This document shows, in pieces, positions 32,921 to 63,631 of a DNA stretch of 64,000 nucleotides. The notes beneath the pieces are model-generated. The model was not told the origin of the DNA and searched no databases. It was given only the letters and a program-made list of their open reading frames with translations. The first letter of the stretch is position 1. Every line of letters starts with the position of its first letter. The position numbers were made by a program, and so were the translations under genes. The DNA is from Paramecium tetraurelia (taxonomy: Eukaryota), in contig CT868000.1 of NCBI GenBank assembly GCA_000165425.1, positions 1-64,000 of the forward strand, read 5' to 3'.

Positions 32921-35900
32921 TCAATTTTTAAATTTGATTTCTCTGCAATCTAAAACAACATTTTCATCAAAACCTCCGAATATTCTATCTGTTTCTTGTT
33001 GTAAGGTTGTCTAATATACAGGCAATTGAGGTTCTCTCTAAGACCCAGCACTTTATGGTGTGACATAATGACCAGAAAATTGATCTTCATATAATTTAAT
33101 GTCTGTAGTTCTTCGTTTGGAACTGAAACCATCATTTATAAAATCACTCTGCACTTGTTACCAACTACGTAATTTAGATATGATTAAAATACTATTGAGG
33201 ATTGTTCTAAAGATTGCCATCTAATGTTATTTCGTCACTCTCTGTATAATCATCTTGTCTCCTTATTATCTTTTTAATCAGTAAGTTGGAGTATGATTAC
33301 CAAGTTTTAAATAAGATTAAAACATTCAAATAATCATGAAGAATGTTGAAATTAGATTTGAACTATAAAGTATGCTGACTGATATTGCTTCTCTGTTGGG
33401 TTTTGTTTCTCCTATAATACAGTAATCGAATTTGCATCTCTTTATTGAACTATTTCATGTTTTGAATGGACTCCTAGGACCCATCTTTGAACACTTCATC
33501 ATGATAACAACACCTGAACAGTTGATACAGTAACTGATTATATTGAATATATCCACAAGCATCACTACTTAATCATAAAAGCATTACCATCTCAAATTCA
33601 ACTTCGATGCTAATTTGGCTGCGTCCCATAAATTGTCATCTTTGCCTCCTCCCAATGGTTATCCGATGTCAAGCAAAAAGCGACAAAGAAACTTGTAATG
33701 CATACTTTGACCATTGGTCTCAGCTGAATACTTACACCAAGCAGTTTTGATCTTATCGATTTCCTCGACATATGTTTGAATCATTGAATTCTGGACTTAG
33801 AAAAACTCTTCAAATTGTTCAATCAAACCTAAAATAAACAAATTCAAAAGAACATAATTTGAAAATAGCATAAATGTTATGAAATATAATTAATTGAAGT
33901 CTGAACCACAACAATCAGGGTTCTCTGGACATGATGGATTATGATGCATCGTATCTGTCATAATAGTCCTAAAATCATCACCTGATGCACATTTAAACAG
34001 TGCCAACAAGGCATATTCAAAATTAGTAAAATTAATGTAATCATCAATCACTGCACCTTCAATTATCTTACCGAATAATTGACATCCAATCAATGCATAA
34101 ATTATCATAGTGATGATTAGAATGGATATGAGTTTGGCCAAAAATGGAAGAGCAAAACCCATCACTCTTATCAATCTTGATAAGTTTGTTAATCCTTGAA
34201 ATATGACAAGCAGACGCAATTGTCTTGTCATAAAGGCTAACCTTATCATTTAATAATGTGGAGTGAACACATTCGATTGAAAATAATAGATAACCCAGTC
34301 ATTCTCTAAATCTGCTATTAAGTCACAAAGGGATATCAGAATCAAGAATGTATAATACCTCCTCCAATTATTGTCAAAGTATCTATTTATACCCAATGAC
34401 ATAAACAACAGGGCAATCCATAAAGCATAAAACAATATGATGAATCTCTAAATGATATTTATTTATCTGATATACTCCACCTCCATGTCATATTAATATT
34501 GTAATTAACAGATCAAATCTATTAACAACATCAGAAACATAAACTTCTAAAATATGGAATTATTGACGATAAAAGAGGCAAATCTTCTTACTATCTTGGT
34601 GGGGGGAGTTGAAAAAACAGGAGTATCCTTAAGGATAATTGGAGCAATCTCTGTAAACTCTCTCTAGAATTTGGTGGCATCTTACATTTCAATCTTTTGT
34701 TGATTGAATCTCAATTTCGAAAAGAGTGTTCCCGTAAAGAAACTCAAAAAGAACATAGACCCTACAAAGCAAAATGAAATGAAGTAAGCATATGTTGATA
34801 TATAAGTAGCAAAAGGAGATGGTCCGTATCTGCTTTGTCTGCTGTTTTCAGCAACTTACATGATTTCACCCCAACCATCAAAGGTGGATACTACAAACAA
34901 TGTGGGCAATGCTATAGTGATATTGTCAAAGTTATGTTTAAAATTAATCCACTCTCTTTGAGATTCCTTGCATTCTCTTTCATTTACATAGAATTGCATT
35001 TTATCATCACAAAATCCAAACTGACTTTCATACAATATGATGCCAAACACTCCGAACATTATCCACACTGAAATCAAAGTCAATAATATCTTTAACATGT
35101 CTAATAATGATTAAGCCAAAGCAGCTCTTATCTTGTCTAACCATTTAATTCGGTACATCAACTTCATTGGTCTAAAATGGCCGAGAAACAAACAAATATT
35201 TACAATTGGGTTTTGTTTATAACTATCGATAAAGAACCCAAGCAAATAAATTAGGTCGATCAATTACCATGAATAGTTGATATGTGATCCCTTGTCCATA
35301 CATAACCCTTTTGCTATTATACAAATTATATCTTCTAGGAACATAAACACATTTAAAATCATCAACAAAATATATGGGTATTAACTCTTCTCTTATTCAT
35401 AATCATGGTATGTTCGAATAATCATTACAATAATTGATGAAATCAAGACCAAATTAGTAAACCAATAAAAAGCTTAGGATGAACAGAAATTGCAACAAAT
35501 AATTCTAATTTTGCTGGTTTTTTCAAATAAGTAGAGTGATGTTTCACATTGAATATCTTGGAACAACTTAGGATTCGACTTCATTACTTACTTATTTAAT
35601 TACTCTAATATAATTACATTATTATACTTAAAGATCGCAATAGACTTTCCATCAAATCAAGTTTTACTTTTGGTTATTCCTTCTCTTCCAACTCACAGAT
35701 TTGAACTTATGAGAAATATTGTGATTTAATTCTCAAATTTCTCGTAGAATCCAGATCTGTATTTAATTGTTCCTCATCTCTTGCAGAAGTCATTTGATTC
35801 TCTAGCAGTTGCTTATCACCTTAATCTACTTCTTCCTTTTCATCTAGATATCTGCCAAATCCATCAAGCAAAATAGCTAAAACCAATCCATAAGTCAAAT

Positions 35901-38900
35901 AATTCAAAATTATAACCATCGAAAACGAATAAGTGATAGCAGCAACAGTACTTATGCCTGTCCCTAAAACATACACTCCATACCAATCATCATTCGTCAT
36001 AATATTGAATATAGTCATAATTGCTTTCATCAAATTATCGAAGGAATGTAATTAACCCAAAAAATCATCCTAATCAAACTTACTTGCATAAAGATCCATC
36101 CCAATCATTGCGTATATTGTGATAATGATGAACATAAATATAGTTAGATATATGTATTGCTTAAATGTTATTGATGCAATCTTACCTATCAATACAGCCA
36201 TCTAATTGTATTTTAAGCATCTGTAAAATAGTATACATTTTGTTCCTCTTATCAATCTCAAATATTACTCAGTTAAATTCAAATAATCACTGAAACTAAA
36301 TTCTATAAAACTTGCAATCATTATTATCGCCTATAACACATTTTCCTTACTTGAAAAGAAACGTTGCAATGGATATGTGAACATTTACAAACTGATTTCG
36401 ACCAACAAAAAAACAGTTGAAATATCTTCGCATTTCGATATGATAATCGGATCTGCTATTCCATACAATGATAAGAATATGAAATTGATCAAGATTATCA
36501 AATCAAAAAATAATTAAGTGACCTAATTGTCTATTATTATTAAGGTGTATCTCCTCATAATCAATAGTTTCCCACCTATTGTCGGCATCCATATTAATCG
36601 ATTGAAATTATTTAAACTATTAAAGATGTCTTCGAACATCTAAAATCGATCTGGATTCATTAGTAATACGTTGTTTCCTGACCAATTCTTTGTTTTGATT
36701 ATCTTCTGCTCTCTCTCTTTCTAGAAAATTAATTAATACAGTTCCTCATTAGAATCCAATTGTAATTTTGATTTGGGTATCTTCGTGTTGATTTTCTCTT
36801 GAATCTATTCATAATTGATGTAGTATCCTTAAATATAGACGTATCTTCTGCCCTTGCTAATGTGTTCAAAGGGTAGTTTTTGTTCTACTCTAGGTCTCAA
36901 ATTAATTATAGATTTTAAATCATTGTTTTTTCGCTTCATTTAGAGAGAGGGGACATCGAGACTCTCGTCCTTCTTACTTAGACTCTTTTAAATAGTGATT
37001 CTCCTAGTACTCTTATGGATTGGGTATCTAGACATTGAATAATCAGATTGTTATCTCGTTGTTTATTTTAAGTTCTTCTTTGATAGCAGATGTTGATAAT
37101 ACATTTTTATTTTTTCCTTATGTCCAATTCTAACAAATTAGCCTATAAATACCTTTTCTTCTAAACAAAGACATCTTTCAAACTATTAAATTTCTATTCC
37201 ACATGATAATTTACAGAATTGTTCAATTAGGTAAAATTGTACTCTATTAATTTCAATAAAATTGAAATCTCAATAGGATCATCAGAATATAAATTAATAT
37301 TTACTTAACTCTGTTCTTTTTTGAGTTCCTTGAACTTAGGCAATAGTTAGTTTTTGAGTGAGAAATACTTAAACTTATTCCAAATAGAACTTTAATTAAG
37401 TTTCTACAGTAAATATTTAATTCAAATACCGTTTATGCTTCATCTAAAATCTTTTTTTGTTTAGAGGACAACAACCTCAACTGTTGATTCGGCTTCTCAG
37501 GCCTAAAATTGTCCTCAATTAGTTCATTCAAAGGCTTCATTGTCCTAATCAAATGTCTGTGCTTCTTTAACACAGAATAGAAACCAATGTAACGCAAAAA
37601 GGATAAATCAAAATAGGAGATCACATCCTTACTTAAGAACATCTCCTATCTTTATAAACTATGATCGTTTTTCTATTTAGATAACTTCTCAAATTCTTCG
37701 CATTCTTATGTCGCTTCTGAATAGTGAATTTTCAATACAGCAATCATCATATTGATCGAAAAGAAGCCACAAACAAATATGATCAACAAATAATAGATCC
37801 ATATCTATGGATGGTAGATCCTCATTGTAAAAAACATCACCCAACTCCAATCGTCCATTGTTATTGTCCTTAAAATCTACCCAAAGGAAAAGAATATATT
37901 ATTGAAGGATGTTGGCAATTTAGGGGTTTCAGCTGATAACATGCAATGCATTCCTTCAGGACAAATGTTTTAATAGCACTGGATCCAATCATCGACTGGG
38001 TCTCCCTCTATTGGTTAACATCTATAATTAAATAGGCCCTGGAATAAGGATACTCCAATTATGGAAAAGAATAAGGCGGATAGTAAGAGGATGAAGAGTG
38101 CTTCAGCTAAAAATACCAATGACTTTTTTAGAGCTATCAACATGTATTTCAATCTCAATAAAACATCTCCCAAATATATGAAGATAGTGATTATTCTGAG
38201 TGGAGTTGGGTCGAATGGAATTGAAGTGGGGTAAAAGTAGTGCAAAAAGCTGATTAATGTACATAACAAATTAAATATATCTTCCTTACTGTACAAAAAA
38301 TGTACTGTAGGGTAGATCCCTCCTGCAGCTAGAATTCTGATGCATATTTCAAATGCAAAACAATAAAATATAAATTGCTTGTACTTCTCATTTGTGATTG
38401 GGGGATTTGAGTTACTTAGTGTGAATAGAGTCAGATTGCAAATAATGAAAATACCATTGATAATTTTAAATTGGTAACTGTCTACGAGTTTCTAGAAGTG
38501 CATCGGTATACACAAACAAGAATAAACAATGAATTTTCTTAATTTCAGGAAATTGAGATGATCATTGTAATTCTAGACTAAACTAATTTAAATACTTTTA
38601 ATTCGTGCTTCAACCTTTCCAAACCATGGAGAGGAGTCAATACAACATAATAAGGGTCTTCAAATGGATTGCGTTCCTTGTGCTTTTAATACTTCTTCAA
38701 TATCCGGGGATCAAGGTCTTCACAAAAATATTCCACGTCTTCATTATGCTGAGCTTCCAATTCTTCTATTTGATCTTGAATAGGGAAATTGTCGTGTCCT
38801 CTATCTAGCAATTGATCTTGAGAATTGACTTCGCTCATGGAGCTTGAATCACCAAAGCATTTTTTTAGAGTCCTTAAAACTTGCTTCTTAGGACCTTTCG

Positions 38901-39270
38901 AGCTATTTTAATCAGAAGAATTATGCGTCTATTGTTCTTGTTATTCGAGTGTTAACAAAAAGCCTTCTTTAAAACTCAAATTAGGTACTGCAATTTTGTC
39001 TTCCTAAGGATCAGGCTTTTCGTCAACATTATTATACTCACTAGAATCTGAGGAATTCTCATCTTAGTTTTCGTAAGGTTGAAAATTTTTTAAACTCTTC
39101 AAAGTACTTTATTATAGCAAATGCTTGAGACTCTTCATCTCCTTCAAATACCTTGTTGGGCTTCTCTTCATCATTTGATTCGAGATTGTGAATCGATAGC
39201 TTTTCTATTTTTTAAACTCCTATTATTTTGGCGATGACTTTTGCTGCTGTGAGGATTCTCGAGGAAGCAT
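32921..39270 (-). CDS. Four-domain (4x6TM) Cav/Nav-superfamily cation channel, copy A
   Basis: Pore loops TITMDDW, IMTNDDW, STFDGW and ASGDDF; S6 motifs INMMIAVL and LFILGLIEQF; C-terminal EF-hand-like segment WCKYS..LLDIGQPLGG. Confidence 0.92.
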
Positions 39271-39817
39271 TTTTATCTAAAAAAAATAATATAAAATTAT
39301 TCAAATCACATTAATTACGCTACTAACACAATTGCAACTAGCAATAATACATTGCTACTATTTAGAAGGGGCTACTAAGAACTTGAGCTGAATACCAATA
39401 AAGATCAAACTGGCACTTTTCCAATCACTTCCCCATTTCCATTTAATAATATTTGCAACAATCAATTGCATATACTGTAAAACCAATGTTATGAAGTTAT
39501 ATTTATTATCTATTTAAATATTGCTTAATCAAAATTTTTATTTAACTAATATCAAATATCACAAGTCTTCACTTTAAATAAACTCCTATAATTATGTAGA
39601 TAATTCTATGGAGAAATGATATTGAACCCTATAAATAGTAGAATTAATAATAAATTCATAAATGATGACTACATCGGAAAAGTATCAACATTCTTTGATG
39701 AACCTAGTGATATCATCTTAGTATTGAGGAATACACACAATAACAACAAGATGTCTAAACAAAATTCTATCGAAAATAGATTAACAATTTAATATTATTA
39801 TTATTTCCCGCTAAAAT

Positions 39818-41264
39818 ATGGAAGTAGAATCAAACACAGGAATACCCTTCATTTTACAAAAATTGAGAATAAATTCTGAGAAGAAATTCAAACATGAGAG
39901 AGTTGGATATGAAATTTAATAGTCGATCAAGTTTTATTTGACTCCTCTTAATAAAAGCTTTAAAGCATAATATAGTCACATTTATTATATGCGCTATTTG
40001 AACTTGTCTAAACGATTTGAGAATAATAGCAATGATTCTTAATTCATTGAGTTGATTTAAAAAATACAGAATTAATAAGGAACCATCAAGGCAATTGGTA
40101 CGATTTTCAAAGAAATGAAATTAAAACCATATTATTTCTCTTCGAATTCAAACAAAACATTATAAAGTAAAATGAATTTGCCTATATGCAAGATTATGTA
40201 TCTAATGAGGATGTATGCTATTTAGAAGACAGTTCAGGAAGAGTCAAATTGCAAATTCATAATGCCATACTCTGTCTTCCAAATAGGAAAGATAAAATAG
40301 TCAATGTCAGCGATCTTGTGACAGGAATTACATTGATGATTGAAGGGTAGATTGTTGCAAATAATATTGTGAAAGTAGAAAGGTTCTATCTACCTTAACT
40401 TCCTGAGGCACCGCTTTTTAAGCCATTAAATTTAACTTCATATCTCTGTCTGATTTCTGGTTTAAATTACAATGCCTCAGAATGTACTACCAAGTATCGA
40501 CATATGATTGATTATATGTAAGGCAATCTTTATAGCGGAGAAGGAAGCGAAGTAAGATTTCACAATAATGATATAGATTCCATATAATATATCTTAAGTC
40601 ATAATTCTTGGGAACTTATATTCCAAGCTAGAGGAACCAATTGATTAGTAGGTACAGAATCCTTAGTAAGACTTCAAAGGGGTGTATAGCAAAATATAGT
40701 TAAACATTAAAGGAGTTGATGAATTGATTAGTTAGTTAGTATCCGTTACTCCAGTTGCTATAATGCCAGGAGTAAATGAACCAGTTTCTTAGATGTTTCC
40801 TTAGACACCTCTGCATAGATCATTTTTTCCAGAATCCTTAGAAAAATCCAAATAATTGATATTCTTAACAAATCCAAGTGAATTTTCTTTGGGAGAGTTA
40901 AAGGTACTTGGAACAAGTGGATAAAATATCCAAGACATTAAAAAGTGCTCTTTGATAAAGGATTAATCAGATGTAGATTTATTGGAAATGACATTGTTTT
41001 ATGGACATATTGCTCCAACTGCGCCAGATACTTTGATGTTTATATTTAATTCAATTATATAGTTCATACCCATAGTAAAAATAGGATCCATTTGTTTTAT
41101 CAGAGTTACCGAATATTTACTTTGCAGGAAACATGTCAAAATTTGGAACTAAGATTGCTGCTGAAAATGTAAGAATTGTTAGTGTGCCAGCATTTTCTGA
41201 AACTGGAACAATCTGTTTAATAAATTTACATACTTTAGAATGTTTTCCTGTTCATATATAATGA
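39818..41264 (+). CDS. POLD2: DNA polymerase delta small (B) subunit
   Basis: QYSHIY..R, IGTIFKEMKLKP, LEDSSGRVKL, MPGVNEP..MFPQTPLH, TNP, GTSGQNI, HIAPTAPDTL, DPF....PNIYFAGN. Confidence 0.96.
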
Positions 41265-41288
41265 AAACCATTTATATATATATTAATA

Positions 41289-43565
41289 TCAGATTTTAAT
41301 TTTTTTCTTGCTTTAACACAATAATTTAGTTTCTAATTATTCTAATTATTCATGTATCATTTCATGAATTTTCAAATAATTATATTGCCTGTACTTGTTC
41401 CATTGATGTAATGATTTCAACTCTTTTTTGCTTGTTTTTAAGCCTTGCAATATAACTAAGATCTTGGTGGCACAGTTCTCCTTTTAAATCCAAGACAACC
41501 CAAAATCCTGTATGTTGTAAAAGCTTATTATAAACTAAAATATAAATGATAATGATTACCTTGACATCCTACAAAAGAGTTGATTTTTCTCTTTAAGTTT
41601 CAAGTTTAATAAATGGCAAATTATTGTGTCCTGTCAAATCAGAGTAAACATTCTGATCTAAATATTATTGAATGAAATCAGTGAGCTATGTTGAATTCTT
41701 TTATAGCTAAATTTATTTCCACATATACTCCAAAGATCGAAAGGATCCTGTTCTAGCCAAGTTATACATTTAATCCAAGTTATTAATTCGAATGATATTC
41801 TATCTTTTGATACCAGAATATATATCCAGAACTTTTGCTTGTAATTCAGATTGCGATGGGAAATGTGTTAGTTTAATTATTTATGCTTCCTCTGAGATTT
41901 CAAACTTAACTTTTAATTATTTTAATTTATTTAGCAATTAAATTGGTGTCATAACAGATCCTTTGAGTAAATCATCAACTGAACATTTATAACCATTTAG
42001 ACTGCCTGTTTTCTTACCATAAATTTAGATATTCTGAGAGATCTCATCATCTTCTGGTAATTGTGATATTATTAATTCAACTGGAATGGCAACTTAAATT
42101 TCTAACCATTTCTCTTTTTCTAATTCTTATAGAAATAGTTAAATTTGTTTTCTGCTGAAATCATAATTCAAAGTTGATTCATTTAATAGTATCTTTTTGA
42201 TTTTTGCATCAGACTATTCTGAACTTTGTAAATGCAACCATTTCTTAGTTAACCAATAAGTGATATCATTTTCATCTTTAGATATCAAATCATTTGTGTA
42301 AACACATTCCTGCATAAAAATAGCCAAGTTTTCTATTTAAATAAAATTTGAACATATTTCCGCCCTTTAGGTGAAGTAATAGTCATCACATAAAAATATA
42401 TGAGAGTTGGCTTCTTTGTTCAATTCTGTTATATCCAGAATGTATGTTTCAATATTTAAGGGTAAATACAAGTGAACAGAAAGGAATACAAAATTTTTCA
42501 GTCCTTCTGGCAATTAGAATCCGCTCGGTAATACAATTATATCGATATTTTAAGATGCAAAATCATAATAACTAGCTTATCTTTGATTCTCAGGTTTTTT
42601 TTAATGGATTGAGTTACTCTTGAATCCATTTTACTATAAAGTAAATTGCACTGATTCTACTGCACTGATATTATGGCAGAAGACAGCTATTCCAGTCTTT
42701 TTATATAATCGTTGGCTTCGAAGCAAAGATATCAACGATTTGATAGGACTTTCATCCTTGGAACAAGTGATTTAAGTCTTTGGACTGAAGGATCTAAATT
42801 TATTAATAGAATAAATTACTCGCGATATGTTTGATAGTTTCTATTAAAAGGATGCACTTATCGAAGATCCTAAATAAAGACACTTTGAGTTATGGGCAAT
42901 AGAATGTGGATGTATTCAGCATTAGCCTTTTAGATGTACTTAGTTAGGTCTGTTTGTACTTTGCCTATTTCCAGAAAGGACAAATAATAATTGGATTAGT
43001 CTAGCAATAAGAGTTTGATATCTAGATTTGATAGATCAATTAAATTGGCTTGATCTGGATGCACAATCAATAATTTAATGTTCCTGCTTGAGATATTTTT
43101 GACTATGAAGTCAATTTAATGAGTAGGAACTTCAGGATTGATGGCTGCCCATGAGATGACATCTTGGATTCTTCTTAATTTCTCCTTCAGCAACACATAA
43201 TTGTATGAGAGTATGACAACCAAGCCATCTACTAAAATAGAGAGCAATTAAAATAAAATTGATCGTTAAATTGTATTTAAATTTAATGAGCAAATAATAT
43301 TATTTGTAGTATTTCTACATAAGAAATCGATTGGATCAGTGATCAGATCTTCAATTTCTAATTGTTTAATAGCATCCTACAATTTTCTATCATAACCCTC
43401 CGTAATTGGGGTCTTGATTTGTTCATAATTATTATTTTCTTTAAATGGAGTCATGTTAAAAGAGATGATCTTTTTGACTTCCTCACTAACTAAAAAAGGG
43501 ATGGAGTTCTGTTTCTTCAATTGTTTAGGAGTGAATGAATAGCCAGAATCAATGGAATCGTTCAT
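41289..43565 (-). CDS. RecQ4-like protein with degenerate helicase motifs (probable pseudo-helicase)
   Basis: Colinear RecQ4-like segments: LVVILS, AAIN, IKLLIVHPD, LLLLDQSN, VHLYLPLNIETY..ANSHIFL, and C-terminal ILQGL..QWNKYRQYNY. Confidence 0.7.
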
Positions 43566-43584
43566 ATTTAAATAATTAATAATA

Positions 43585-45411
43585 ATGAATTAAAACAGAG
43601 AGTGTTAACATCATGAAAAGGTCATGGAGTTATTTTGTGAAACATGCAAAGACCTAGTCTGCAATGATTGCGTTAGTTATGGTCCACATCAAACTAAGAA
43701 TCATAAAATAATTAGTTTCAAAGATGCCTACACAATAAGATAGGCATTCATTAAGGACAGAATTGAAACCGCCATGAAAAATAAGAAGGAGAATCTCCTC
43801 GATTAATTAGAGAAGATAGAAACCAGAATGAAATATATCACGGAAGTGAAGGCCACCATTGTCAAAGACATTCACATGGAATTTGAGGGAGGTATCTTAA
43901 AGAGATTGAATGATTAATCTGGTACATTGACAGCAGTACTCCAGAAGGACATTGCTTGGTTATAGAAGCATTTGAATTCAATAGATGATTTTATTCACAC
44001 TTTTGAATATTTGGCTTTGGATCAGAATGTGTTACCCTTATTATTCATGTCAAAGACATTAAGTCAATAAACCATGAAGTTACTCAGCATCATTATTAAG
44101 AGTATTGCAATTCATTATCACTTAGCCGAAATAACTTCGCATCCTTCTGATCTCCCTAGAGAATTGTTTGATCTCAGAACCAAAATCAAAAATTCAGAAA
44201 TACTCCAACAACAAATTGAATTCAAAAAGCAAGTCATTTGGAAATGTCGATAAGAGAAGATCTAATCCTTATAGAAAATTAAAGAAGAATACTTCGTCAA
44301 AATTGAAGATGAAATCTATGATTGGGTAAGACTACTTAAAAAAGTGGTCAACACTTTGGACAGTTTGTGTATGATATGTACATTTTGTGGGTGTTTTATC
44401 GATGTAGTGAATGAACAATGTGCACTCAATGCTAAACCATATGAAGAAGTTTAATTAGATTGTATATATTAATCTTATTCGAAATTAAGTTACTGGATTT
44501 ACCAATGAGTTACCTAAAATGAAAGTATTTGGAACTTGCCAACATTTCTTTGGCTATCCAAGAGATGAGTATTTAATTTTGAGAAAGGATAAATATGCTA
44601 ACTTCGGGGATTATCAGGAACAACGAAGAGCTGCCAAGGAAGTCTACTTCAAAGTGTTTAGATCACTCTGTATATTAACATCAATATAGTCAAGGGTTTT
44701 CTATTATAGATCTAAAAGCCAGGAGATATTTGAAACAATTGGATTTGTAAGCCATATTCAAAAAATACGATCCTGATAACAAAGGCTGGTTGTCCATTGT
44801 CAAATTCAAATATCTGATGCATCAAGAATTGGGTATGTCTGTTTAGGAAGTCGAAAAACTAGTCATCTACTTTAGAGATGAAAAAGAAGACAAAGTAATT
44901 ATTAACAAATATGAAGGTCAATTATGAATACTTCCTGGGGATCGATTGGTATTTGGAAGAACTGTAGAGGTTGGAAGAACAAGTAAAAACAGAATCTGTC
45001 AAATATGCTAAATTATATAATAGGAGAGTGAGAGTTAAAACAACCTCTCCTCCTCCAAGGCAGGAAGCCAAATTTTTAGAAAGACCATAATAATAATAAT
45101 AATAATCAACTATTTATAGCAGTTTTACTCGTTTTTCATAAGCTGTTGAAAAACAGCCTGTCCCATAACCTGTTTAATATGAGTAGCCTCGATTTGGGTT
45201 CATAGATAGAGATAATTCTCATACTCAATCAGTGAGTAAACAGTTCCCTCAAAAAAACAATATAGAATTTTCAGCTGAATCCAGTTTGAAGAGCAAGTAG
45301 AAATCCTCTTCTTTGTAGCCTAAGAGAGTCTAATTTGAAGAGAAATAAAGTTATCAAAGATTTAAGGAATCTGCATAAGTAAGTGGAAATTATGCTTCTA
45401 AATATTATTGA
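43585..45411 (+). CDS. B-box + coiled-coil + CTFCG motif + EF-hand protein
   Basis: CQHHEKVMELFCETCKDLVCNDCVSYGPH..NH B-box; SDLPREL; CTFCG; EF-hand FKKYDPDNKGWLS; Q/S-rich tail. Confidence 0.8.
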
Positions 45412-45457
45412 ACATTGGACTTAGTTGACTATTTGAATTATTATAATTAAATTCAAA

Positions 45458-47012
45458 ATGGATAACTATAAAAAATATCTCTTTGATGAGAAATTTCAAG
45501 AACCACAACCTCGAAACACCTACTCATTCTAAGCTCAGGAGAGCCAAGAAGAATAGCCTGTCGAATCAAATTTTGATGATGAATACAAAAAAGATTTTCT
45601 TCAAAATCAAATTAAAAACATCAGAGAAAAATTGATAATGATGGGTTTTCCTAGTTTGGGTGATTTGTATAGCAATTCAAATTCTGAAGTTGATCTTACT
45701 GTCAAAGTGTAAGTATAATTCAAATCAATTTTTTAGATTGGTTGCAGTAATTAAATAAAGAAGAGAGGACATGGATTTTAAGAACACCTATCATGAAAGA
45801 GTTAATAAAATCGAAGCAGAAAAACAACAACTAGTTTCTAATTTTGAAAGAGTATCAAATAATCGAAAAATTCTTGAGTAAGAAAATACAACCTTATAAG
45901 CCAAGATCAAGAGCACAGAAAAGGTTCAGAAAGAATAAATGTAAGTAAATTTATATATTAAATAGTAATAAATTGATGCTGGAAAGAGAAGATCTATAAA
46001 AATAGCTATCAAAATTATAAAGTAGATCGACTTAATTTGAACATGAATTGAAGTAAAGGGATTTAGAAATTTAAAAACTTAAAGATCATATTAAGAAATA
46101 ATAGGCTTCCAAAACTTATAAAAATAGTTTAGAAATGACATAACCTATTGAATAAGGGGGTCCAAGTGTTTTTGCAGCAAATGGAGAATATGAATTCAGT
46201 CAATTGGTTATGAAAAAATGGGAGGAAGTCAATAACAAATTACTTAGGGAGAATGAATAACTTAGGGAAAATCTAGTTAAGATTCATACGGAACTAGGAG
46301 AGATACTGCAGATTAGGAGAGATGTCTATATCAAAAGAAGAAAAATAGATTTTGGAGATGAGAACATTCCACCAGAATTGGATAACCCATAGCAAAATAT
46401 GCATCAATTCAAAAGTGACTTATTCAAGGCTCCTTTAGAAACTAATGGCAAATAGGCTATTTCGATGTTGTAAGAGAATCTATCAACGTTTAAAGAACTT
46501 ATGAAGAAGTTTGATTAATAGTATGAACTTTAAATGAACGAAGATGAAATAGAAATTGAAGCTGAAGGAGGTAAAACTAAGGCATGTAAGAATTTGACTG
46601 AGTTATTCAAAAACTACAATTATATTTTTGAAGCTCAGGATAAGATGATAAGTTAAATAATCAATAAAAGCTAAAATTTAAAAAAGATAGACGAATTAAA
46701 CTTTAATTTAAATAGATTCAATAGAGTGTTGGATGACAAGTAGATTGATGATGTTAAGAAGTATTTACAAGATTAGAAGAAGTATCTGGATGAATCAAAA
46801 AATGAGATGGATATGATCAAAAAATAATTTTAACATTAATTGAAAAAAAGAGAAGAAGAGAAATAGATAATACAAGTATTCTTATTGATTGAAATATTTA
46901 GATGAAACGATAGATGCTAGAAGAAACTAATGATAAATTCAAGGAAAATATCAGAATGTTGGAAAATGCAAGTAAACAAGCCTTACAATAACTTAATTAA
47001 GATAATAATTGA
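45458..47012 (+). CDS. Afadin/alpha-actinin-binding (ADIP/SSX2IP/Msd1)-like coiled-coil protein
   Basis: IREKLIMMGFPSL, LVAVIKQR, RSTQFEHELKQRDLEIQKLK and LLRENEQLRE match the ADIP-family pattern. Confidence 0.7.
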
Positions 47013-47223
47013 TTAAATATTTTAGTATCTAATTATTATTATACAATAAAACTTTGCATTCCATTTTAATCCATCTTCTGTGATAGATAGATAAGATTTA
47101 GAGAGGATTCAATATATATCAGCAAATTGAAATAACATTCTTTATAAAATATAAAATTATATAACTAATTTGTTTGAAAATATTAACTAGCAATTACTAT
47201 TAAATTATTATTTATAATTCTCT

Positions 47224-50200
47224 ATGAACTTATTGCATCAGCCAAGGAATAATAAAAAACGTCTAACAATTTCAAAAGAATTGGCTTAGAGAAAATAGAG
47301 CATTATTTAACATGTTTAATGTATTTTAATTGATTTTTATATTGTAGCTGGTGCTCAATTAGTTAAATAAGATTCGTCTTCCAAATTGATCAAATAAGAG
47401 AAATAAGTTCGAAAAATATCTATAGATTCATCATTATATTCGCATTCCTCTTTCTATGTTCAAAAAAAGTTAAATATACAAATAAAATAGAAATTAAAAA
47501 GAAAAAGAATTAGAGGAGTATGAAGAATACTAATTGAATTCCTCTGAGTATTCAGAATAATCCATACCTGCAATTCAATATGTTAATTAGGAATCCATAA
47601 AAGAGCCTAATTAGATAATTGAAATCTATAATAATAAGAACCATAAATTTAGAGCTGATTTTGACGATGACATTCAAGGTAATTAAAAGCATGAAAAACT
47701 TTCCAAATATCTAGAACTATTTGCATTAGAATAGGACGATCACCCAGAAAATGAAGTAGCATATTCAAAAATAGTTAAAAGATATGAGAAATACTATTTG
47801 CGCAATCCTTTTTAGGATCCATTTTATATATAATTGGTACCATTAAAAGGAACAAAACGATTAATTTTTGAATTAAAAGTAAATTTATATTTAATTTTAA
47901 GAAATATTAAGATAACATAAAATTTTTAAAATTTAGAAAAATTGTTGTTTTTTTGTCACTGATATTTCCAATTTTAGCAAATGATATGATGAATACTAGA
48001 ATCTATAAGATATTGATGACAATATTGATTTTGTTTAATGTCTTTCTATTTATTGTAGTAAAGACAGAACATAGATAAGATACTTTTGAGATAGAACAAG
48101 TTGTTACAATCTTATTTATCATTGAAATTATCATAAGAATCTTAGTTTCTGGCTTCTTTTTCACTAAAAATGCCTTTTTTCTCAGGATGTAGGACATATA
48201 TGATTTCACTCTAATATTTGCGACTACAATAAATCTGTATTATCCAGAAATATTTATCATTGACATATCCCCATTGAGAATGATTACACTTCTATTTTAT
48301 TTGGGAGATATCTTTGATGATTTACAAGTAATGCTCAAAGCGCTCAAATAATCCATAAAGTTTCTAATTGAAGCATTGATGATAGTTGGACTCTTTTCTC
48401 TTTTCTTTGCAATATGTGGTGTATTCCTATTTCAAGGTTTGTTTAATTATCGATGTGAATATGACAATGGGGATGAGACAGATGGGTGGGTTCAATGTCA
48501 TGAAAATTCTTGTTATGAAGATGGCATGACTTGCAAATTTACATCTGAAACTCCAAAGATGCCAACCTCATTTAATAATGTGATATTTTCATATGGTTAG
48601 ATTTTAAGAACAATAACAATGGATGATTGGAGTTGGGTGATGTTTTTTACAATGAGAATATTTCATCCATGGGTGTGGATCTATTATTTGTTGATCATAT
48701 TTGTCGGTGGCTTTTTTGGATTCAATCTAGTTATCGCTGTTCTTAAAACTCATTATGCAGAGGCTGCTGAGGAGAGTGCAAAGAAACAAGAGGAGGAAGA
48801 AATTAATAAGTTAATAAAGGACAATTAAGAACATCCTGAGAGAGAACTCATTAATGTATTTGATGTCGCTTTTCTAAGATACATTGGATTCTTTTCGACT
48901 ATTCAAAAGTATAGGGAATGTTTTTCAAGCAAGATTATCATGACTTCTCATTTGGAATCTGAATCATAAATGAATAAAACCATTTCTGAAGCTAGAACAT
49001 TATCAGCTGCCTAGAAGAAATAAAGTGGTCAACATGTATATAATGTTAAATATAAATTAGAATTTTGAGAATTAAAGTCTGTTAAAAAAAATATAAGAAT
49101 TCACTACTAAGAACTTTTTACTCAGAAAGTTTAGATTGTTAAAATATTAGCAATTAATCATCAATTTAAAGAGCTACTCAGAAGATCCTTTGGAGTTGGA
49201 GATTCTATCAAAATTATAAAACACTTCATATTCCTGTTTGTAGTCAGAAGTGAATTATCAAATGGAATAAAACTTTTCAAGCTAAAATGATGTTTTATTA
49301 AGATTCATGTAATTCAACAAAATATTATTAGTTTGATAGATTTAGCCTTGTAAGAGGAGAAAAAGTTTAATCCTGAAAAAATGAGAAAAATCAAATTTAA
49401 ACAATAATATCCCAATTGGTCTAATTAGGTCAAGTTAATAAAGAAATAAGCTTAATAGCAAAAGTAATTGCAGAGAAGCTATTTTCCTTCAAAAAAGAAG
49501 AAAAATAATAAATGGAATATCAATTTTAAGAAAGATGAAGATAAAGAATAAAATGAAACAAGTAAAAACACTTATGAAATGCTTGAGAAGTCTCCAGAAT
49601 AATAATATTAAAATTTAAATATATAATAGAAGGCTTCATTAAAGAAAAAATCGAAAAAATTTGCTAAGATTGTAGAGGGTTAAGTTTTAATATTTGTCTA
49701 AGGGTATTACTTAACATATGATGAAATAAAAGATAAAGTCAACTTAAAGATCCCAATAATTAAAAATAATTTTACTAGTAATTAATTTAAATACAGAAAG
49801 TTAAGAGAAAAGGAATTATAGGGTGGTAAAATAATAAAAAAGAGTAATTGGTCAGGGAAGGATGTATTAATATTGAATACAAAGAATCTAGAATATTTCA
49901 ATCTTATTTTTATATAATTGAATTAAAGAGATGTTTTAATATGGATGCAGGGATTGAAAGGTAAAATCCTAAACTTAACTAAATATACCAATCTCATTAT
50001 TACAAGCACAACAAGTAGGGTCTGTTTTGATCTAGTAATATTCATAAATTTTACATTCCTTTCACTTTGGAACATAGCTGATTCTAACACAATCCATTAG
50101 GTTGAAAATGTTTCAACAGTATTACTTTCAATTGAATTATTGTTAAGAATAACTTCAATCAAAATAAAAGATTTTACTAGTAATCCAAATTACGTGTTTT

Positions 50201-53200
50201 AAGCAGCAATAGTAATCATTAATATAATTGAATTGACTATGAAAGATTTAATGAATGTTTTTGATGAATAAAATTTGAGATTAATCAGAGGAACCAAATG
50301 TTTGCTATTCTATCGATGTCTAAAATATAATGCTATGGCTGTTAGAATTGGGCATATAGCATCAATGACATTTAAATAATATATTTATTTGACATTTCTA
50401 ATGTTTTTGGTTATCTTTATGTATGCTTTAGTTGGAATGGAGATGTTTGCAGGAGAATTTGATTAAACTGACTCATTAGGTTAATTACATTCATATGATA
50501 ATATTTTCAAGGCCTTCATGACTATTTTTAATATCATGACCAACGATGATTGGTATGGAGTATATGTGATGGGAGGGGAATTAAATTACACCTTTGCGGT
50601 AATCTATTCATACTCTATGGTCATTATATTGAATTATTTGACTTATGGTCTATTTATGGCTGTTTTACTAGATGGATTTGGAAAGTATTTGAATGTATCA
50701 ACTGAGAATGCACCTTTATTCAATAATGAATAGCATGCTGAAATCACGCAGAATTCTAATGAGGAATTGGAGAAACAAGTATAATAAACCATTCTAAGTC
50801 CAATTGGATCTTAAACTCATATTATTTTAGAGAATAACTAAGCAAAATCTAAAGTTGATTTGATAACCAATTTTTTCAAATCCATCAGTAATATTTATAA
50901 TTAATTAGTTAGAATAGTTGAATAAAGAATTATTGAATAGAACCCCTAAACTATACACTGGAATTGAATGTTAGAGTTCTCTCTATATATTTGAGAAAGA
51001 GAATATCATCAGAATAGCGTGTACAAAGGTTGCCACAGCTAATGCCTATGTATATTTTATGGATCTAGTGTTGTATGCATCTCTTATAACTTTCATAATG
51101 AATACCTACTACGATTACGAGGAGAGTTCAAATAATACATGCAACATCATTTAATTAATAATAAACATATGGATGTCCATTGATATTGTAATAAATGTAA
51201 TAGCCAAGGGATTGTTTTTGGACAAAGGATCCTATTTTATTTCAGTGTGGCAGATATTGGATATAATTTATATAATATCTCACTTCATAACATTTGGATC
51301 TTCGTAATATGCACGGATTTTAGATTTCTTTTTGTATTTTGGATATCTAAGACCCATGAAATTACTATTTCGTATTAGTTGGTTGACACAACTAAGAATA
51401 GCACTTGGATATTCATTAGTAGATATCACAAATGTTTTAATTACTATGTTGTCTGTTTGGATCATGTTTGGTGTGTATGGGATAATTCTTTATGAGGGCT
51501 CGTTTGGTTTTTGTGATGATAAAATGAATTTTGAGATTAGTTACGATTAATGCATTAAAGAGAATAGACATTGGATTAATTATAAGCATAATTTCGATAA
51601 TATCACAGTTGCTATTCCAACCCTATTTGTTACATCAACACTAGATGGATGGGGAGAGATCTACTAAGTAGCTGAGAATAGTCAATTGTCAACTATAGGA
51701 CCTTAGCCATTCAATAGTTACATCTATACGTACTTTTTCTTTATAATCTTTGTATTCATTGGTTCAATGTTCTTTTTAAGTTTGTTTACAGGAGTTCTGT
51801 ATTCAAATTTGAAAGAAAATCAATAGAAGATTGAGATGACTGATGTCACTCAGTCCTAGAAGGAGTTCCAAGAGATCTCTTCCATAATTATTAAGGATTT
51901 CCCTATATTTAGTTCACCTCCTACAAATGGTATTAGAAAATTGGCATCAGATATAACTAATAATTCTTACCTTTTGATTTTCATGTATCTCTTGCTGATA
52001 CTCGATCTAATAATTCTATTATTGTTTGAATCAGATATGAGTGAAAGCTACTTCAGAGCTGTGAATAATGTTCATAATGCTTTGACTATAATCTATGTGG
52101 TTTGGATCATCTTACTATTTTTGGCATTGGGAGTTGGTAGATTTTTTGATAATTATTGGAGAAGATTTTATTTCTTTTTGATTCTCGTGGGCATAATTGA
52201 TTTTATAGCTGATTATTCGATTGATTGGATTATGATATATTATAGATCGACTCCTTATGACAAGGCTTATTAGATATTGAGGTTTTTCTTTTCGCTCCGG
52301 AGTTTAAGAGTGATTATTATATTCCAAGGATTAATAAATTTGTAAAGATTGATGAGAGTGATGGTGTTTGCATTCCCTTTTTTAGGTAAGATATTTACGA
52401 TATTGATGATTGCTATGCTTATTTTTGCTTTGATTGGTTGCTAACTGTATGGTTAAATAGATAGTGGAGCAGTGATGGATGATTAAATTAACTTCCAGAA
52501 TGTAGCTTAGGCATTGTTGGCTTTATTCAAATGTGCGTCTGGAGATGATTGGAGAACAATAATGACAGATACAATGCAACACAATCCTCTATGTCTCGAT
52601 GATCCTAAATATTGTGGAAGTGTTCACAATCAATATTTCTTCTTCCTGTTTATGCTCTTGTCTAATTACGTATTACTCAATCTCTTTGTACTTGGATTGA
52701 TTGAACAATTTGAACAGTTCTTTTAATTACAGAATTCCTTGATTCAAACCTATGTGGAAAACATCGACAAAATTAAAACTGTATGGTGCAAATACTCCTC
52801 TGAGACTCAAGGACAAGCTATGAATTACAAGTTTTTATGCAAGTTCCTGTTGGACATTGGTAAACCCTTGGGAGGAGGGAGGGAGGAGAATCTATGGGAT
52901 GTGGCCAAATTAGCATCAAGTTTCAAGTTATAATGGTAATTATACATTTCCTAATTATAGTGATCATTATGGTTACATCCAATACAATCAACTAATATAT
53001 GAACTGTTTAGAAGACGTTTTGTCAATGAGGTCTTTAAGGAAGGATCGGAGAGTTCGATTGTCAAAATTAAGCAATTCAATAAGGAAATGCAATTGAGAC
53101 TAATGTATTATAGGAAGAATAGATTGTTGGAGAGATCAAACATCAGTCCAAACAAATAACTTAAAGCTAACTTTAACATTTTGCATGATTATTTGACTGT

Positions 53201-53764
53201 CTTGATCCTATTCAAAACTTGGGAGTCCTATTCTAAATTGATCTTTTAAAAGATCTGCAGAGAAAATAACTTCTCAGACAGTGATGAAATTTCCATTCAT
53301 ATTGACAAAAAGAACAAACAAAAGTAATTATGTTATTGTTATATGAATCTAGTTTTAATAATTATGAATTTGACGATGACTTTTCTGAATCTGATAATAT
53401 GACACAATAATAGTTGAATAACTAGATATCCTAATAATTTAATAACTCAATCAATCAAAATTTAATTCTACAAAACAGCAGTAGTCTCTAAAGTGGTTCA
53501 AAGAATCATATTATTGGAAGTCTCAAGAATACAAGTACAAGAAGAGTCTAGAGTTTCAGGATTAAGAAGAAGGGCAATCAAAAAATCAACATCAATCCAT
53601 CAGAACCTCAAAACAATGAATAACTTAAACACTATAATACACTCAAAAGTCAGCAGTAGATTGATCAGGATGAAAAATTACCCTATTATAAAAACCAATT
53701 TGATTTGTCTCTTTAAAGTGACTACAAAGAAGGTACATTATTAAATGCAAGAAGAAATTATTGA
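47224..53764 (+). CDS. Four-domain (4x6TM) Cav/Nav-superfamily cation channel, copy B
   Basis: Pore loops TITMDDW (48619), MTNDDW (50542), TLDGW (51641) and SGDDW (52541). Clear paralogue of copy A, with shared intron positions. Confidence 0.92.
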
Positions 53765-53812: not shown

Positions 53813-55794
53813 TCAAACTATTTTGTGAAATCTTACTGAGACAGAAACCCAAACAGCATAGATATCTTCTGGATAAATCTCCATCTTCACTCTAACAGCA
53901 TGGTATGTTTGATCTCCTCTTGCAGTGAGCACTTCTCCACCAACAGGAGATGTTTTGATATCCTCCAACATCTTCTAAATGTTCATGTGATTGAAACAAA
54001 TTGGAAAACTCATAAATGTATGTCCTTCAGGTATATAAGTTCTAATAGCAGATTGAAATTCAGTTTATGCAAATTGCAATCCTATTGTCAATAGTGATAC
54101 TAAATACCTGTGATCTTTTCAGTTTCATAATTGGCCAAGGCTATCTACATTATGCTTCCCAGTTTTTCATCATATCTAGTAGCCAAATTAATTACTAACA
54201 CTAGGATAATTAATACTTTTTCTGTAGCTTCCTATGGCTTCCCTGAGTTATAACTCTAACTTCGGTTCCAATTCATCAGCATGCATTGTTTATCTCAATA
54301 AGATCAATTAGAAATTTTGTGGTTTTAATAGGCTAAGTTCATTTGGATCAACAGCCTTCCATTTAGTATAGTCTTCGATATTGAGATCAGTTCTTAGCAC
54401 AGAATCGTTTTCTTAGATATTTGCATAAAAACACTTATGATTAAAAATACACCCAATTCTTTTATATAACTAAGGAACCTATTTTATTGTATTATCTTTA
54501 AAAATACCTTGGGATCATTAAGTTGAAACTTATGACCAGTCAAAGGTTCCCAGAAGTTGTATGTATATTCAGCCTGTTTCTAATTTGGCTATTTTGGTTT
54601 CTGTAATCTCGTCATAACCCATCCATGAGGCCTATCAGCTGTAGAACCGAATACAACATATGCATCTAAATTAAACCCAAGAAAGAATGAGCACAATAAT
54701 AAGCAATGGTCCTCAAAATCTCCACCTTTCAAAGCTAAAAATGTTGGAAACCTATGCCAAACCTCTAATCGATCTCCAGATGGTCCTCTATCCGAAGTCT
54801 TCATGGGTATCAGACTTACAAATCTGGCAGCGTGATTAGGACTCATGATCCCTCTTACACTTTGTAATTCCCTTATAAAAGTGCTAGATGGTCTCCATAT
54901 TCCATCTTGAGATTCTGAATACAATTTAATTGGTCGAACAGATAATTTAAGTTCTTTAAAATCATTCCACCAAGCATTGCCATAAGTATGAAATCTATCA
55001 GATATTTAATTGATCACAGATTTCTCTTTGGAAAGTTATGAAACCACTATGTTTTCTGGAAGCAATACTAACCCAGTTTTTGGTAATAATTCCAAATGAA
55101 TTTGAAGTATACCAACATGATTCTTCCTTTCATTTTGCATTTTTGTATTATAAGTAGTTGGAAGTTCTATATTCAATGAAATATTGCCATAACATAATAG
55201 AAATCGCCATTCGATTAATTTTTGTGAAAACAACTTTCTTTATCCATTTTAAATTTAAATTACGCATAACTCAATAGGGTGATCTAATTTGCTTAAAGTC
55301 AACAAATCTACATTAGCCTTTTGAGCTTCAGTTCTCAAATCAAACAAAAATAGTTCGTTAAACTCAGGTTCTACTGTGGCATCAACTGTTGCAGATGCAA
55401 ATCTCTGACCGCAAAAACTTAAATATAACTACAATTTCTAATTTTGAGGTTCAATAAAATCCAAGAATGCTCTTCCTTTGTATATACGCAAACTAACTGA
55501 GCGATAATTAATACGATCTGGGTCTACGAATGTAAGCTTAATATTCTCATTTGATCATACTTGTTTATTTTATTTACTAAATTCATCAATTTCATCCAAA
55601 TGTTTGATATCCAAGATGAGATTATCGATGAGATTTGTTTCTCTGAGTAATTTGGTCAATTTTTCATTATCCAAATCATCAATTTGAATTTTTTCACTTT
55701 CGATTTTCTTCTTCAATTTATCAAACACTTCACCCTTATCGAAATAATTGTTGATTAGTTATCGAATTTTAGTTATTTGTTCTTTGGAATACAT
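53813..55794 (-). CDS. CEP76: Centrosomal protein CEP76
   Basis: C2 domain (FCGQRFASATV..VEPEFNELFLFDL), WRFLL, SPNHAARFVSLIP, GDFEDHCLLLCSFFLG, FWEPLTG, IGCIFNH, and C-terminal YPEDIYAVWV. Confidence 0.88.
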
Positions 55795-61034: not shown

Positions 61035-63631
61035 TCATTTCTTTATAACATTGTTCCGCCTATTATATGTAATCAAGTCCACTGTACATTTAGTGGCTCT
61101 AACTTATCTAATTATTTGAGCAGGATACAAAACGTAACACAAAAACTATGTAATAATTCTTAATTTATTTTTATCCAAATTGATCTTGACATTACTAAAA
61201 TTAAACTTAGGATTGTAATGGATGAAATTCTGAGGCTAATCAAATTCCAGCGTTGTGATCAACGGCGTCTCTAAATTCTTCTTGATATAGTAATCTAAAG
61301 TGTCTAATAATTTCAAATCTATGCCTCCTATTTATTTTAAATAGTCATATCTTATCTGCATCTATTTCAATTATGATAATTTGCTAAAATAATTAGTTTT
61401 TGCTCTAAATGACTCAAATGCATGTATGATAAATTGAGGATATGATCTATTAATCATCACTACTTTACGAACCAAACATTAGAATTTTTTTTTAATTTAC
61501 TTCGTTGCTTTTATCCCCAGCTTGATATTTTTATAGCAATCCAAACTGTTGATTAGAATTTGATCATCTATCTTTTCAGGTAAATCGTATATACGAACAA
61601 TATCACTATTTTACTGCTGTATAATAAAAGCATTTTTCTCTAGTGACTATTTCATAAGCTTTGCATTTTAACTGATCTTTCCCCTCAGATGAAATTTTCG
61701 ACCTTATTATGAATCAATCGTAAATTATTTAATTAATTTTTCTTTGTCTGCTACATAATGTACCTATGGACACTCCTTTGAAAAATGGTAATTTGACTTG
61801 CAAATATAACAACTTCTTGGGAATATACTAGTTTCATTCCCATTAAATATCAAATAATCCTTTATTTAACAATATATTTCATAATCTGCTGGGTATTTTG
61901 CTAAGATTTTCAAGAATTTCCTTTGCGATAAAGTCATGACCAATGAAAATCCTTAGCTTTTATATATTTCTGGTTATTCATTACCCAATAAAAAGGATAT
62001 TAAGCCTAGAGTATTACCCTTAGAAAAAGATTTCAACTTCAAATTGCACTATCTATCCCCAAATAACTCTATTTTGCCCTATTCAATGTAAACCAATTGA
62101 TTTTTCTGAGCCACTAAAGATTCAGGAGGCAAAATCTTTCTCTTCAAAGACTTTATGAGTTCTGCCTTAAAAGCTGCAGTAAACCTGTACCTGAACAATG
62201 CACATTAATTCAAAATTATAGAATTGGATTCCTAAACTAATTTATTCCTTAACATTTCCGACAATTAATTTATTATAACATTAACATCCTAGGCCTCTTA
62301 TTCCTTGTCTAATTACCAAAAGTAATCCAAGTATTATCTGACTTCATGTTACAAATTAAAGGGAATTTATTTTCGCTGCATAAATGAGTTGATAATTCTG
62401 AGCTTTCTTCTCTTGTCTTCGCCATATTCTGTGATATTTTGGACAATCATCCCAACTGTATTAATACTATAAGGAAGCTAAAGACTTGAACACACTATAA
62501 AAAAACAGCAAACTATTTTCTCTAGATTAGTTTAAGGAGTCACATCACCATATCCAACTGTAAAGATGGTCACAGCAGAAAAATATACAGAATGTACATA
62601 TTGAACAGTCCAGTCCTCATCTACTACTTTTTCCATCCAACTAGTACCATATGCTCTATGACTATATTCTCCAATCTAATGTTATGAATAAATTATTAAA
62701 TTACATAAAACCAAAAGCAAGAAAAGAAGTGGACCATAAAAAAAAGAGCACCAATCAGTTTTATCAACTCTAAAATTGATGAGGCTTTCTTATTCAAGTT
62801 TAATCCTTCTTCATAATAGATCAGGCACTCCTATATTGTACTATAATGAACCAAAAATGTTATTAGTGTTAGATATATTCTATAATCCTTTATTTTAATT
62901 TGAATTTCATCATCCTATGTCAAAATTAGATATATCAATATTTAAATTGTTGACATCCATTCTAATCCATAGCACTTCAAGAAATTATGTTTGACTATCT
63001 TTTTTCTATCAGTTACTAATATCCCTTCAGTATAATAAGATGTATTTAGTCCCACTAATAAATCTCCTAATAGTATTAAAAGAAAAACAAATGATTAAAT
63101 ATAATAGAGATCAAACATGAAGGAGTATTTATTCCATACTACATCAAGAGGTATTAGAAATAAAAAGTATAATCGAGAAACCAAAGATGCCAGATCCCAA
63201 ACTATTTTAATAGGGGATTCTGGCTTGAATAATTCAACCCGGCCCAACCACAGGATTAAATTCCCAAAATAAGTAGCAATTAGTTTCTTCATCTTTTCTT
63301 AAAATCTAATTTTCAATTCCATCTCCATGTGAGTTGAAAGTAACTTGAAGTTCAAGTTGAATCCATGTTATTATTTTGATGCCGCATTATCTCCTACATA
63401 ATCTAGCAACTCATTCGATATTGAACTATTGTCCTCCACTCTCTTCTTTAAAGAATTAAAAAATCTTCTAACATATACAAACTTCCTCTCTGATTTAGTA
63501 GGTGGACTTTTAAAGGAATCTGAAAAAAAATGATGACCTAAACTACTGTGATTTTGAAACTAGCCTACTATTTCGCTCTATTCAGTATTGAAATAAACCC
63601 TATTTTTTGGTGTTTTCCCTTCCTAAATCAT
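61035..63631 (-). CDS. 6TM K+ channel with C-linker, CNBD-like domain and CCHC zinc knuckle (EAG/HCN-like ciliate family)
   Basis: PESPIKIVWD, YFSAVTIFTVGYGDVTP, YSINTVGMI, C-linker VRQYLDYFW, CNBD-like region, CYICKSNYHFSKECP. Confidence 0.92.

Follow-up and report, generated by a model that had tools for sequence, protein, structure and literature searches.

The question raised by contig CT868000.1 of Paramecium tetraurelia (assembly GCA_000165425.1) is whether two genes for four-repeat channels, found in its first 64,000 nucleotides (nt; the stretch analysed here, referred to as the window), represent a channel class of their own. In both proteins the selectivity-filter position is occupied by Asp in each of the repeats I–IV (D/D/D/D), and the first-pass annotation of this DNA had proposed a Ca2+-selective, CatSper-like class that might not have been described before. 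The class is real but not new. The clade, the DDDD filter and the weakness of the voltage sensors have all been in print since 2018, and little is added as a discovery: the two genes nest within subclade Ic of the ciliate channels described by Pozdnyakov, Matantseva & Skarlato (2018, Sci Rep; PMC5824947), and the possibility that the class is undescribed falls with that placement. From their sequences, it is nearly certain that gene 1 and gene 2 encode P. tetraurelia proteins of subclade Ic. For the reading favoured overall, that of Cav-type channels of the Ic family with a Ca2+-selective pore and without canonical depolarisation gating, we estimate a probability of about 0.6.

Filter register, fold and conservation

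The window was read with the ciliate code (TAA and TAG as Gln), and the models of gene 1 and gene 2 were obtained by homologue-guided splicing. Both genes encode single-chain, four-repeat channels, as had been claimed: Pfam Ion_trans (PF00520) matched all four repeats, with scores (gene 1/gene 2) of 62.7/87.4 bits for repeat I, 72.4/74.7 bits for repeat II and 185.4/215.5 bits for repeats III and IV, the latter in two stretches each. The filter motifs (Table 1) each occur once per protein. Their register was determined in two separate MAFFT alignments with animal Cav1 and Cav3, one of 56 hand-picked rows and one of 67 rows. The first Asp of each motif fell in the column of the Cav filter Glu, and the control rows read as expected (E/E/E/E for Cav1, E/E/D/D for Cav3). 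Asp is therewith confirmed at the filter position of every repeat in both paralogues, and also at the following position (filter+1) of repeats I, II and IV, where the residues read D/D/G/D. HMMER alignments to solved channels placed TMDDW of repeat I over TMEGW of Cav2.2 repeat I, and TFDGW of repeat III over TFEGW/TGEGW of Cav1.1/Cav2.2 repeat III; repeat IV came in register with repeat II of Cav1.1 (SGDDF over TGEDW), the IV-to-IV register resting on the two multiple alignments.

An AlphaFold model of the repeat III–IV reading frame, half the channel, was built from 33 aligned rows (mean pLDDT 78.2, pTM 0.70). D260 and D560 of the model lie at the turn between short pore helices (246-257/262-270 and 546-557/562-568). 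Foldseek matched this half to NavPaS (E-value (E) 7.8e-23, TMq 0.70), Cav2.2 (E 6.8e-22, TMq 0.68), Nav1.7/1.8, Cav1.2 and Cav3.2, with TMq of 0.62–0.71 and E of ~1e-20 to 1e-23. Searched by sequence against all solved structures, the same frame gave E of 5.3e-62 for Cav2.2, 4.6e-59 for Cav1.1, 3.3e-50 for Cav3.2, 3.9e-40 for Nav1.5, 6.7e-16 for NALCN and 9.1e-06 for CatSper4, the weakest PDB match, in which no stretch passed alone. The epithet CatSper-like holds for the filter chemistry, that is for the four filter Asp, and fails for kinship (CatSper4 9.1e-06 versus Cav2.2 5.3e-62); judged by these scores, the likeness of the filters is convergent rather than inherited.

From 1609 candidates, a word-seeded search aimed at longer proteins returned 121 hits; the top 41 hits were Paramecium proteins from five aurelia species. 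Together with the two window models these form a family set of 43 rows that are 42–97% identical. The filter was D/D/D/D in 37 of the 43 rows, and filter+1 was D/D/G/D in 37 of the 43; because so many rows keep the D/D/D/D pattern, it is, on this alignment, not a matter of chance. The six filter exceptions were P0003 and P0032 (a one-residue deletion in repeat II), P0005 (D/D/R/D), P0033 (D/D/N/D), and P0034 and P0041 (truncated or misaligned in repeat IV). The damaged filters of P0003, P0005, P0032 and P0033 are found in other aurelia species; P0003 and P0005 are duplicated sisters within the group of gene 1 itself, which suggests that one copy is decaying there after genome duplication. A further P. 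octaurelia protein, P0414 of the P0018 cluster, is 2395 amino acids long and named protein-kinase-domain-containing; it may be a real fusion, or the gene model may have joined a DDDD channel to the kinase next to it.

Placement in ciliate subclade Ic

The gene 1 model was identical at 2067/2067 residues to P0391 (XP_001426414.1, GSPATT00029647001) and the gene 2 model residue for residue to P0407 (XP_001426419.1, GSPATT00029652001), both of P. tetraurelia. The database annotates these proteins as 'Ion transport domain-containing' or uncharacterised and nothing more, and their GSPATT identifiers were found in no open-access main text, supplements lying outside that search. The two proteins are 47% identical to each other.

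Trees were computed with FastTree from 67 hand-picked rows and 1531 columns (26 of the 41 Paramecium family proteins, the 2 models, 23 named ciliate proteins, 7 animal Cav, 1 fungal and 1 Diphylleia protein and 7 further database rows), and by an IQ-TREE quick search (LG+G4) from 35 of those 67 rows and 1181 columns. The Paramecium DDDD clade had a support of 100 in both (28 rows in FastTree, 11 in IQ-TREE), as did the enclosing ciliate clade. The family separates as a clade from EEEE channels, whether of Paramecium or of other ciliates, which bears out its proposed distinctness from the canonical EEEE Cav. Its stem is long, about 1.0 change per column. It groups, with a support of 99–100, with rows whose filters read E/D/D/D (P0133, and P0270 with the fragment P0122) or S/D/D/E (P0127, P0129), and this whole group adjoins EEEE channels of Tetrahymena, Ichthyophthirius, Pseudocohnilembus and Paramecium (P0323, P0325, P0330). 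Long branches meet at this point, as the program warned, and the position of P0133, P0122/P0270, P0127 and P0129 is provisional. Overall, the trees indicate that the DDDD family branched off, on a long stem, from the EEEE Cav-like channels of ciliates, which are its probable ancestors.

In a search beyond Paramecium, none of the 149 rows newly added from the best 150 of 4994 hits (representative library at 50% identity) had a D/D/D/D filter; the nearest relatives in those rows were the E/D/D/D and S/D/D/E proteins just named. P0200 is also E/D/D/D, yet lies outside the ciliate clade. The reading '-DDD' of P0146 was rejected as a near-DDDD filter, being an alignment artefact in which a Cav3-like segment is placed twice.

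Within the DDDD clade, gene 1 pairs with the P0004 cluster and gene 2 with the P0013/P0016 clusters; the two genes belong to different subgroups, and their duplication would therefore be old. Proteins of both types lie on one contig in P. octaurelia and P. pentaurelia (accession numbers 10 apart, equal contig sizes). In the duplicated sister region, both types are on one contig in P. primaurelia and P. pentaurelia (accessions 2 apart), and the corresponding accessions are adjacent in P. tetraurelia (XP_001438028/29). This linkage, taken from accession order and contig records rather than from DNA, suggests that the pairing is older than the last whole-genome duplication.

The clade that both genes enter is the one already described. 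In its account of ciliate clade I, PMC5824947 distinguishes three subclades, of which Ia and Ib have R/K-rich S4 segments and a dominant E/E/E/E filter; in Ic the dominant filter is D/D/D/D, one or more S4 are poor in R/K, and an IQ motif is present without an identifiable pre-IQ; this subclade is termed "likely voltage-insensitive". According to the same account Ic is known from Paramecium only, and its passages on the subclade give no function. The tree text of the supplement lists as members Paramt11, 13-20, 23-29 and 31-34. By accession, P0018 (XP_001435671.1) is Paramt18, P0024 (XP_001450103.1) is Paramt20, P0026 (XP_001424033.1) is Paramt23 and P0031 (XP_001433501.1) is Paramt26, and all four lie inside our DDDD clade. 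The P0004 cluster holds Paramt34 (XP_001438029.1), 75.6% identical to gene 1, and the P0016 cluster holds Paramt25 (XP_001455219.1), 74.7% identical to gene 2. These links were made through accession numbers and the printed table, read by eye. Each gene thus has its whole-genome-duplication sister on the published list (Paramt34 for gene 1, Paramt25/28 for gene 2; the sister of gene 1 is gene GSPATT00007767001), and XP_001426414.1 and XP_001426419.1 are not among the 34 P. tetraurelia accessions of Table S1 in PMC5824947. Both genes have the D/D/D/D filter and R/K-poor S4 segments (S4-I and S4-III, see below) and group with listed members; on this comparison they are unsampled duplicated sisters of those members and no new clade. 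DDDD filters in four-repeat channels from outside the animals are also listed in a 2018 review (PMC6259924), with reference to Verret et al. 2010.

Voltage sensors and proposed function

The S1–S4 blocks were read by eye from the 67-row alignment against the Cav1 charge ladder. S4-I keeps 1/5 of the charge positions, S4-II 4/5 with one extra outer Arg, S4-III the inner 2/5 and S4-IV 2/4 with one extra outer Arg. Sensor IV has Trp in place of the conserved S2 Glu and Tyr in place of the S3 Asp. Sensor II retains the S2 Glu but, in both window genes, carries Gln at the position of the S3 Asp, where two other subgroups have Glu. By these charge counts all four voltage sensors are degraded, to differing degrees, and sensor II alone looks partly intact. 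Degraded as they are, the S4 sequences show strong conservation within the family, which argues for function rather than decay. EEEE ciliate channels have full S4 ladders in all four repeats, and full ladders are also present in the E/D/D/D rows (P0133, P0122/P0270) in repeats II–IV, the repeats that those partial sequences cover. If the tree is right, these relatives indicate that the filter changed before the sensors decayed, and P0133, P0122/P0270, P0127 and P0129 may be intermediates of this course.

In the proposed mechanism the filter Asp, together with the Asp next to it on the outer side in repeats I, II and IV, would form a double carboxylate ring, a site of high field strength that binds Ca2+ tightly. 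The pore would be Ca2+-selective, and monovalent cations would probably pass only when divalents are absent, as in CatSper (DDDD) and in CavAb. CavAb is a bacterial NavAb engineered to the filter TLDDWSD, and its high Ca2+ selectivity comes from the D-D-W motif. The filter of the window genes can reasonably be read as Ca2+-selective because of CatSper, CavAb (cited as PDB 4mvu in the filter passages of PMC10120453), the rule given in the same passages of this Spafford-group review that a filter+1 Asp is 'always' tied to Ca2+ selectivity, with filter Glu or Asp alike, and an engineered DDDD Cav3.1, which is reported to have still given currents with measurable gating and kinetics (bioRxiv 10.1101/626069). 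Opening would not follow the usual depolarisation response of four sensors; the channel may be gated by weak voltage modulation through sensor II or by some other input. Candidates for the latter are Ca2+/calmodulin acting on a putative IQ-like motif in the C-terminus, a partner protein, and mechanical or chemical stimuli. Selectivity and gating taken together as a functional mechanism stand at roughly even odds.

Several points weigh against the favoured reading. S4-II is largely intact and nearly invariant across the family, and real voltage dependence of these channels is possible. The side chain of Asp is shorter than that of Glu, which could make a DDDD ring wider and reduce its selectivity. 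The structural model represents repeats III–IV and not the full pore. The Pfam scan of both C-termini gave no Cav IQ (Ca_chan_IQ) or GPHH domain, although animal Cav1 hits do carry PF16905 and PF08763; the IQ-like motif, tabulated for Paramt34/28 in PMC5824947, was seen by eye alone in the C-terminal open reading frame translations of both genes. In open-access full texts, no electrophysiology, localisation or knock-down of any family member was found.

Sensors degraded in all four repeats would also suit a NALCN-like, voltage-insensitive leak channel for mainly monovalent cations, in which the Asp rings are an extracellular Ca2+-sensing or -blocking site and not a permeation path. Among four-repeat channels, NALCN is the textbook case of weakened sensors, and its filter contains a Lys. 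The window genes have no Lys in the filter and are far more distant from NALCN than from Cav (E 6.7e-16 versus 5.3e-62). The term "likely voltage-insensitive" in the Ic account of PMC5824947 accords with a leak channel; the three filter+1 Asp indicate Ca2+ selectivity by the rule quoted from PMC10120453, and we consider a leak channel unlikely. A channel for another divalent cation (Mg2+ or a broad range), or one residing in an internal membrane (alveolar sacs, contractile vacuole complex or trichocyst sites), is about as doubtful. The family is large (22 P. tetraurelia Ic sequences in the tree of PMC5824947, plus the present two), which allows varied locations, and no sequence feature fixes the membrane. 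Against an internal site, the open reading frame translations of repeats I and III contain Cys-rich extracellular turret loops resembling those of surface Cav/Nav channels. The Mg2+ current is carried by PKD2 and XNT. With these two as partner channel proteins (review PMC8535419), a role of the DDDD family in Mg2+ conduction loses ground. That the genes are decaying duplicates without channel function, as the damaged filters of some family members including P0003 and P0005 might suggest, is highly improbable in view of intact reading frames and canonical introns in both, 95–98% identity to orthologues in two other species, filter and S4-II/IV motifs invariant across 42–97% identical relatives, and transcription of both genes.

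As a long shot, the DDDD family, with gene 1 and gene 2 in it, could be the long-sought molecular basis of non-ciliary Ca2+ entry in Paramecium, with the somatic hyperpolarisation-activated conductance Ihyp as the leading candidate. As reported in the passages on this current in PMC2229130 and PMC8208649, Ihyp is highly Ca2+-selective (not carried by Ba2+, Sr2+, Mg2+, Mn2+ or Co2+), is blocked by amiloride and is unaffected by mutations that remove the ciliary Ca2+ current; those passages name no gene for it. Were the assignment true, the double Asp ring would account for so extreme a selectivity, and a polarity or mode of gating different from that of the ciliary Cav would be in keeping with the rebuilt sensors. 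More than 20 expressed paralogues in a classic organism of electrophysiology have no assigned current, and several well-measured Paramecium Ca2+ conductances appear in the cited passages without a named gene; the DDDD family marks a real gap here.

Gene models and neighbouring features of the window

Both genes were confirmed at the outer coordinates of the span 32921..53764 given by the first-pass annotation, which is not one feature and consists of two genes plus spacers (Table 1). The GC content is ~29% and introns are 22–29 nt long; the six introns of gene 1 measure 23–28 nt and all read GTA...TAG. The genes are divergently oriented, pointing away from each other, and the 39.3–47.2 kb interval between them contains about four unrelated genes, for a DNA-polymerase B-subunit homologue, a helicase-C protein, a B-box protein and an ADIP-like coiled-coil protein.

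Table 1. Positions in the window of the two channel genes, their exons and filter motifs, and of other features.
Feature	Position	Strand	Description
Gene 1	32921-39270	minus	four-repeat channel; 7 exons, 2067 amino acids; 32921 is the last base of the stop codon
Gene 1 exons	38596-39270, 37430-38572, 37153-37403, 35628-37129, 33588-35604, 33193-33564, 32921-33164	minus	stop included
Gene 1 filter, repeat I	37847-37861	minus	TMDDW (D465)
Gene 1 filter, repeat II	35983-35997	minus	TNDDW (D1070)
Gene 1 filter, repeat III	34871-34885	minus	TFDGW (D1433)
Gene 1 filter, repeat IV	33971-33985	minus	SGDDF (D1733); Phe in place of the usual Trp
Gene 2	47224-53764	plus	paralogous four-repeat channel; 8 exons, 2122 amino acids; 53764 is the end of the stop codon
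Gene 2 exons	47224-47468, 47491-47878, 47902-49035, 49061-49308, 49332-50887, 50913-52935, 52961-53323, 53353-53764	plus	stop included
Gene 2 filter, repeat I	48616-48630	plus	TMDDW (D452)
Gene 2 filter, repeat II	50539-50553	plus	TNDDW (D1077)
Gene 2 filter, repeat III	51638-51652	plus	TLDGW (D1435)
Gene 2 filter, repeat IV	52538-52552	plus	SGDDW (D1735)
DNA polymerase accessory B-subunit homologue	39253-41164	plus	DNA_pol_D_N and DNA_pol_E_B domains; small introns split the frames; plus-strand transcription
CEP76 homologue	54307-55554	minus	C2 and peptidase-like domains; centriole/cilium protein; immediately after gene 2
Potassium-channel-like gene	61038-63688	minus	separate gene; Ion_trans_2/Ion_trans pore match, GYGD-type signature in translation
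Run of 150 N	1303-1452		assembly gap or masked stretch; surrounding region 19% GC

Both channel genes are transcribed at a low level. Three stranded oligo-dT RNA runs, all carrying the same species label, contained sense-strand reads, with depths per bin of 0.08–3.4 for gene 1 and 0–1.4 for gene 2, rising towards the 3' end. The introns of gene 1 at 33565 and 38573 (23 nt each) are absent from the RNA-library contigs of a fourth library (run X14); confirmation is confined to these two because the reads are 58 nt long. In the coiled-coil gene, the RNA reads differ from the window by five single bases within 45586-46714 and have loose ends at 46210, 46252 and 46696, which probably reflect unmodelled introns or strain differences.

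Comparison with known channel classes

Compared with subclade Ic, the window genes have the same D/D/D/D filter and R/K-poor S4, with a putative C-terminal IQ-like motif as read by eye, and there is no essential difference. The EEEE Cav-like channels of ciliates (Paramecium, Tetrahymena, Ichthyophthirius, Oxytricha, Stentor) belong to the same ciliate-specific clade (support 100) and, unlike the DDDD family, have an EEEE filter, G/N/G/D at filter+1 and full S4 charge ladders.

With the animal Cav1/Cav2 and Cav3 channels, their best sequence matches among solved structures, the window genes share the single chain of four repeats, the fold and the pore-loop frame T-x-[D/E]-x-W, and in Cav3 the filters of repeats III and IV already carry Asp. 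They differ in having Asp in four repeats, three filter+1 Asp instead of one, degraded sensors, no Pfam GPHH or Ca_chan_IQ domain and a place in a separate ciliate clade. Membership of the high-voltage-activated Cav1/Cav2 channels was rejected on the Asp in place of Glu in all four repeats and on the two missing domains, and membership of Cav3 (T-type) on DDDD instead of EEDD and on the ciliate clade, which stands apart from animal Cav3. NALCN is likewise a four-repeat channel with weakened voltage sensors, distant by sequence and restricted to animals; NALCN/Cch1 membership was rejected on the E values of NALCN and Cav given above and on the position of the fungal Cch1-like row outside the ciliate clade.

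CavAb shares the D-D-W motif with the window genes and is an artificial homotetramer of one-domain subunits. CatSper is Ca2+-selective and, like the window genes, has four filter Asp; according to the filter passages of PMC10120453, CatSper1-4 all have Asp at the filter position, followed by Asp in CatSper1, as in the window genes, and by Gly in CatSper2-4. Unlike these single-chain proteins, CatSper is a heterotetramer of separate six-transmembrane subunits with many accessory proteins.

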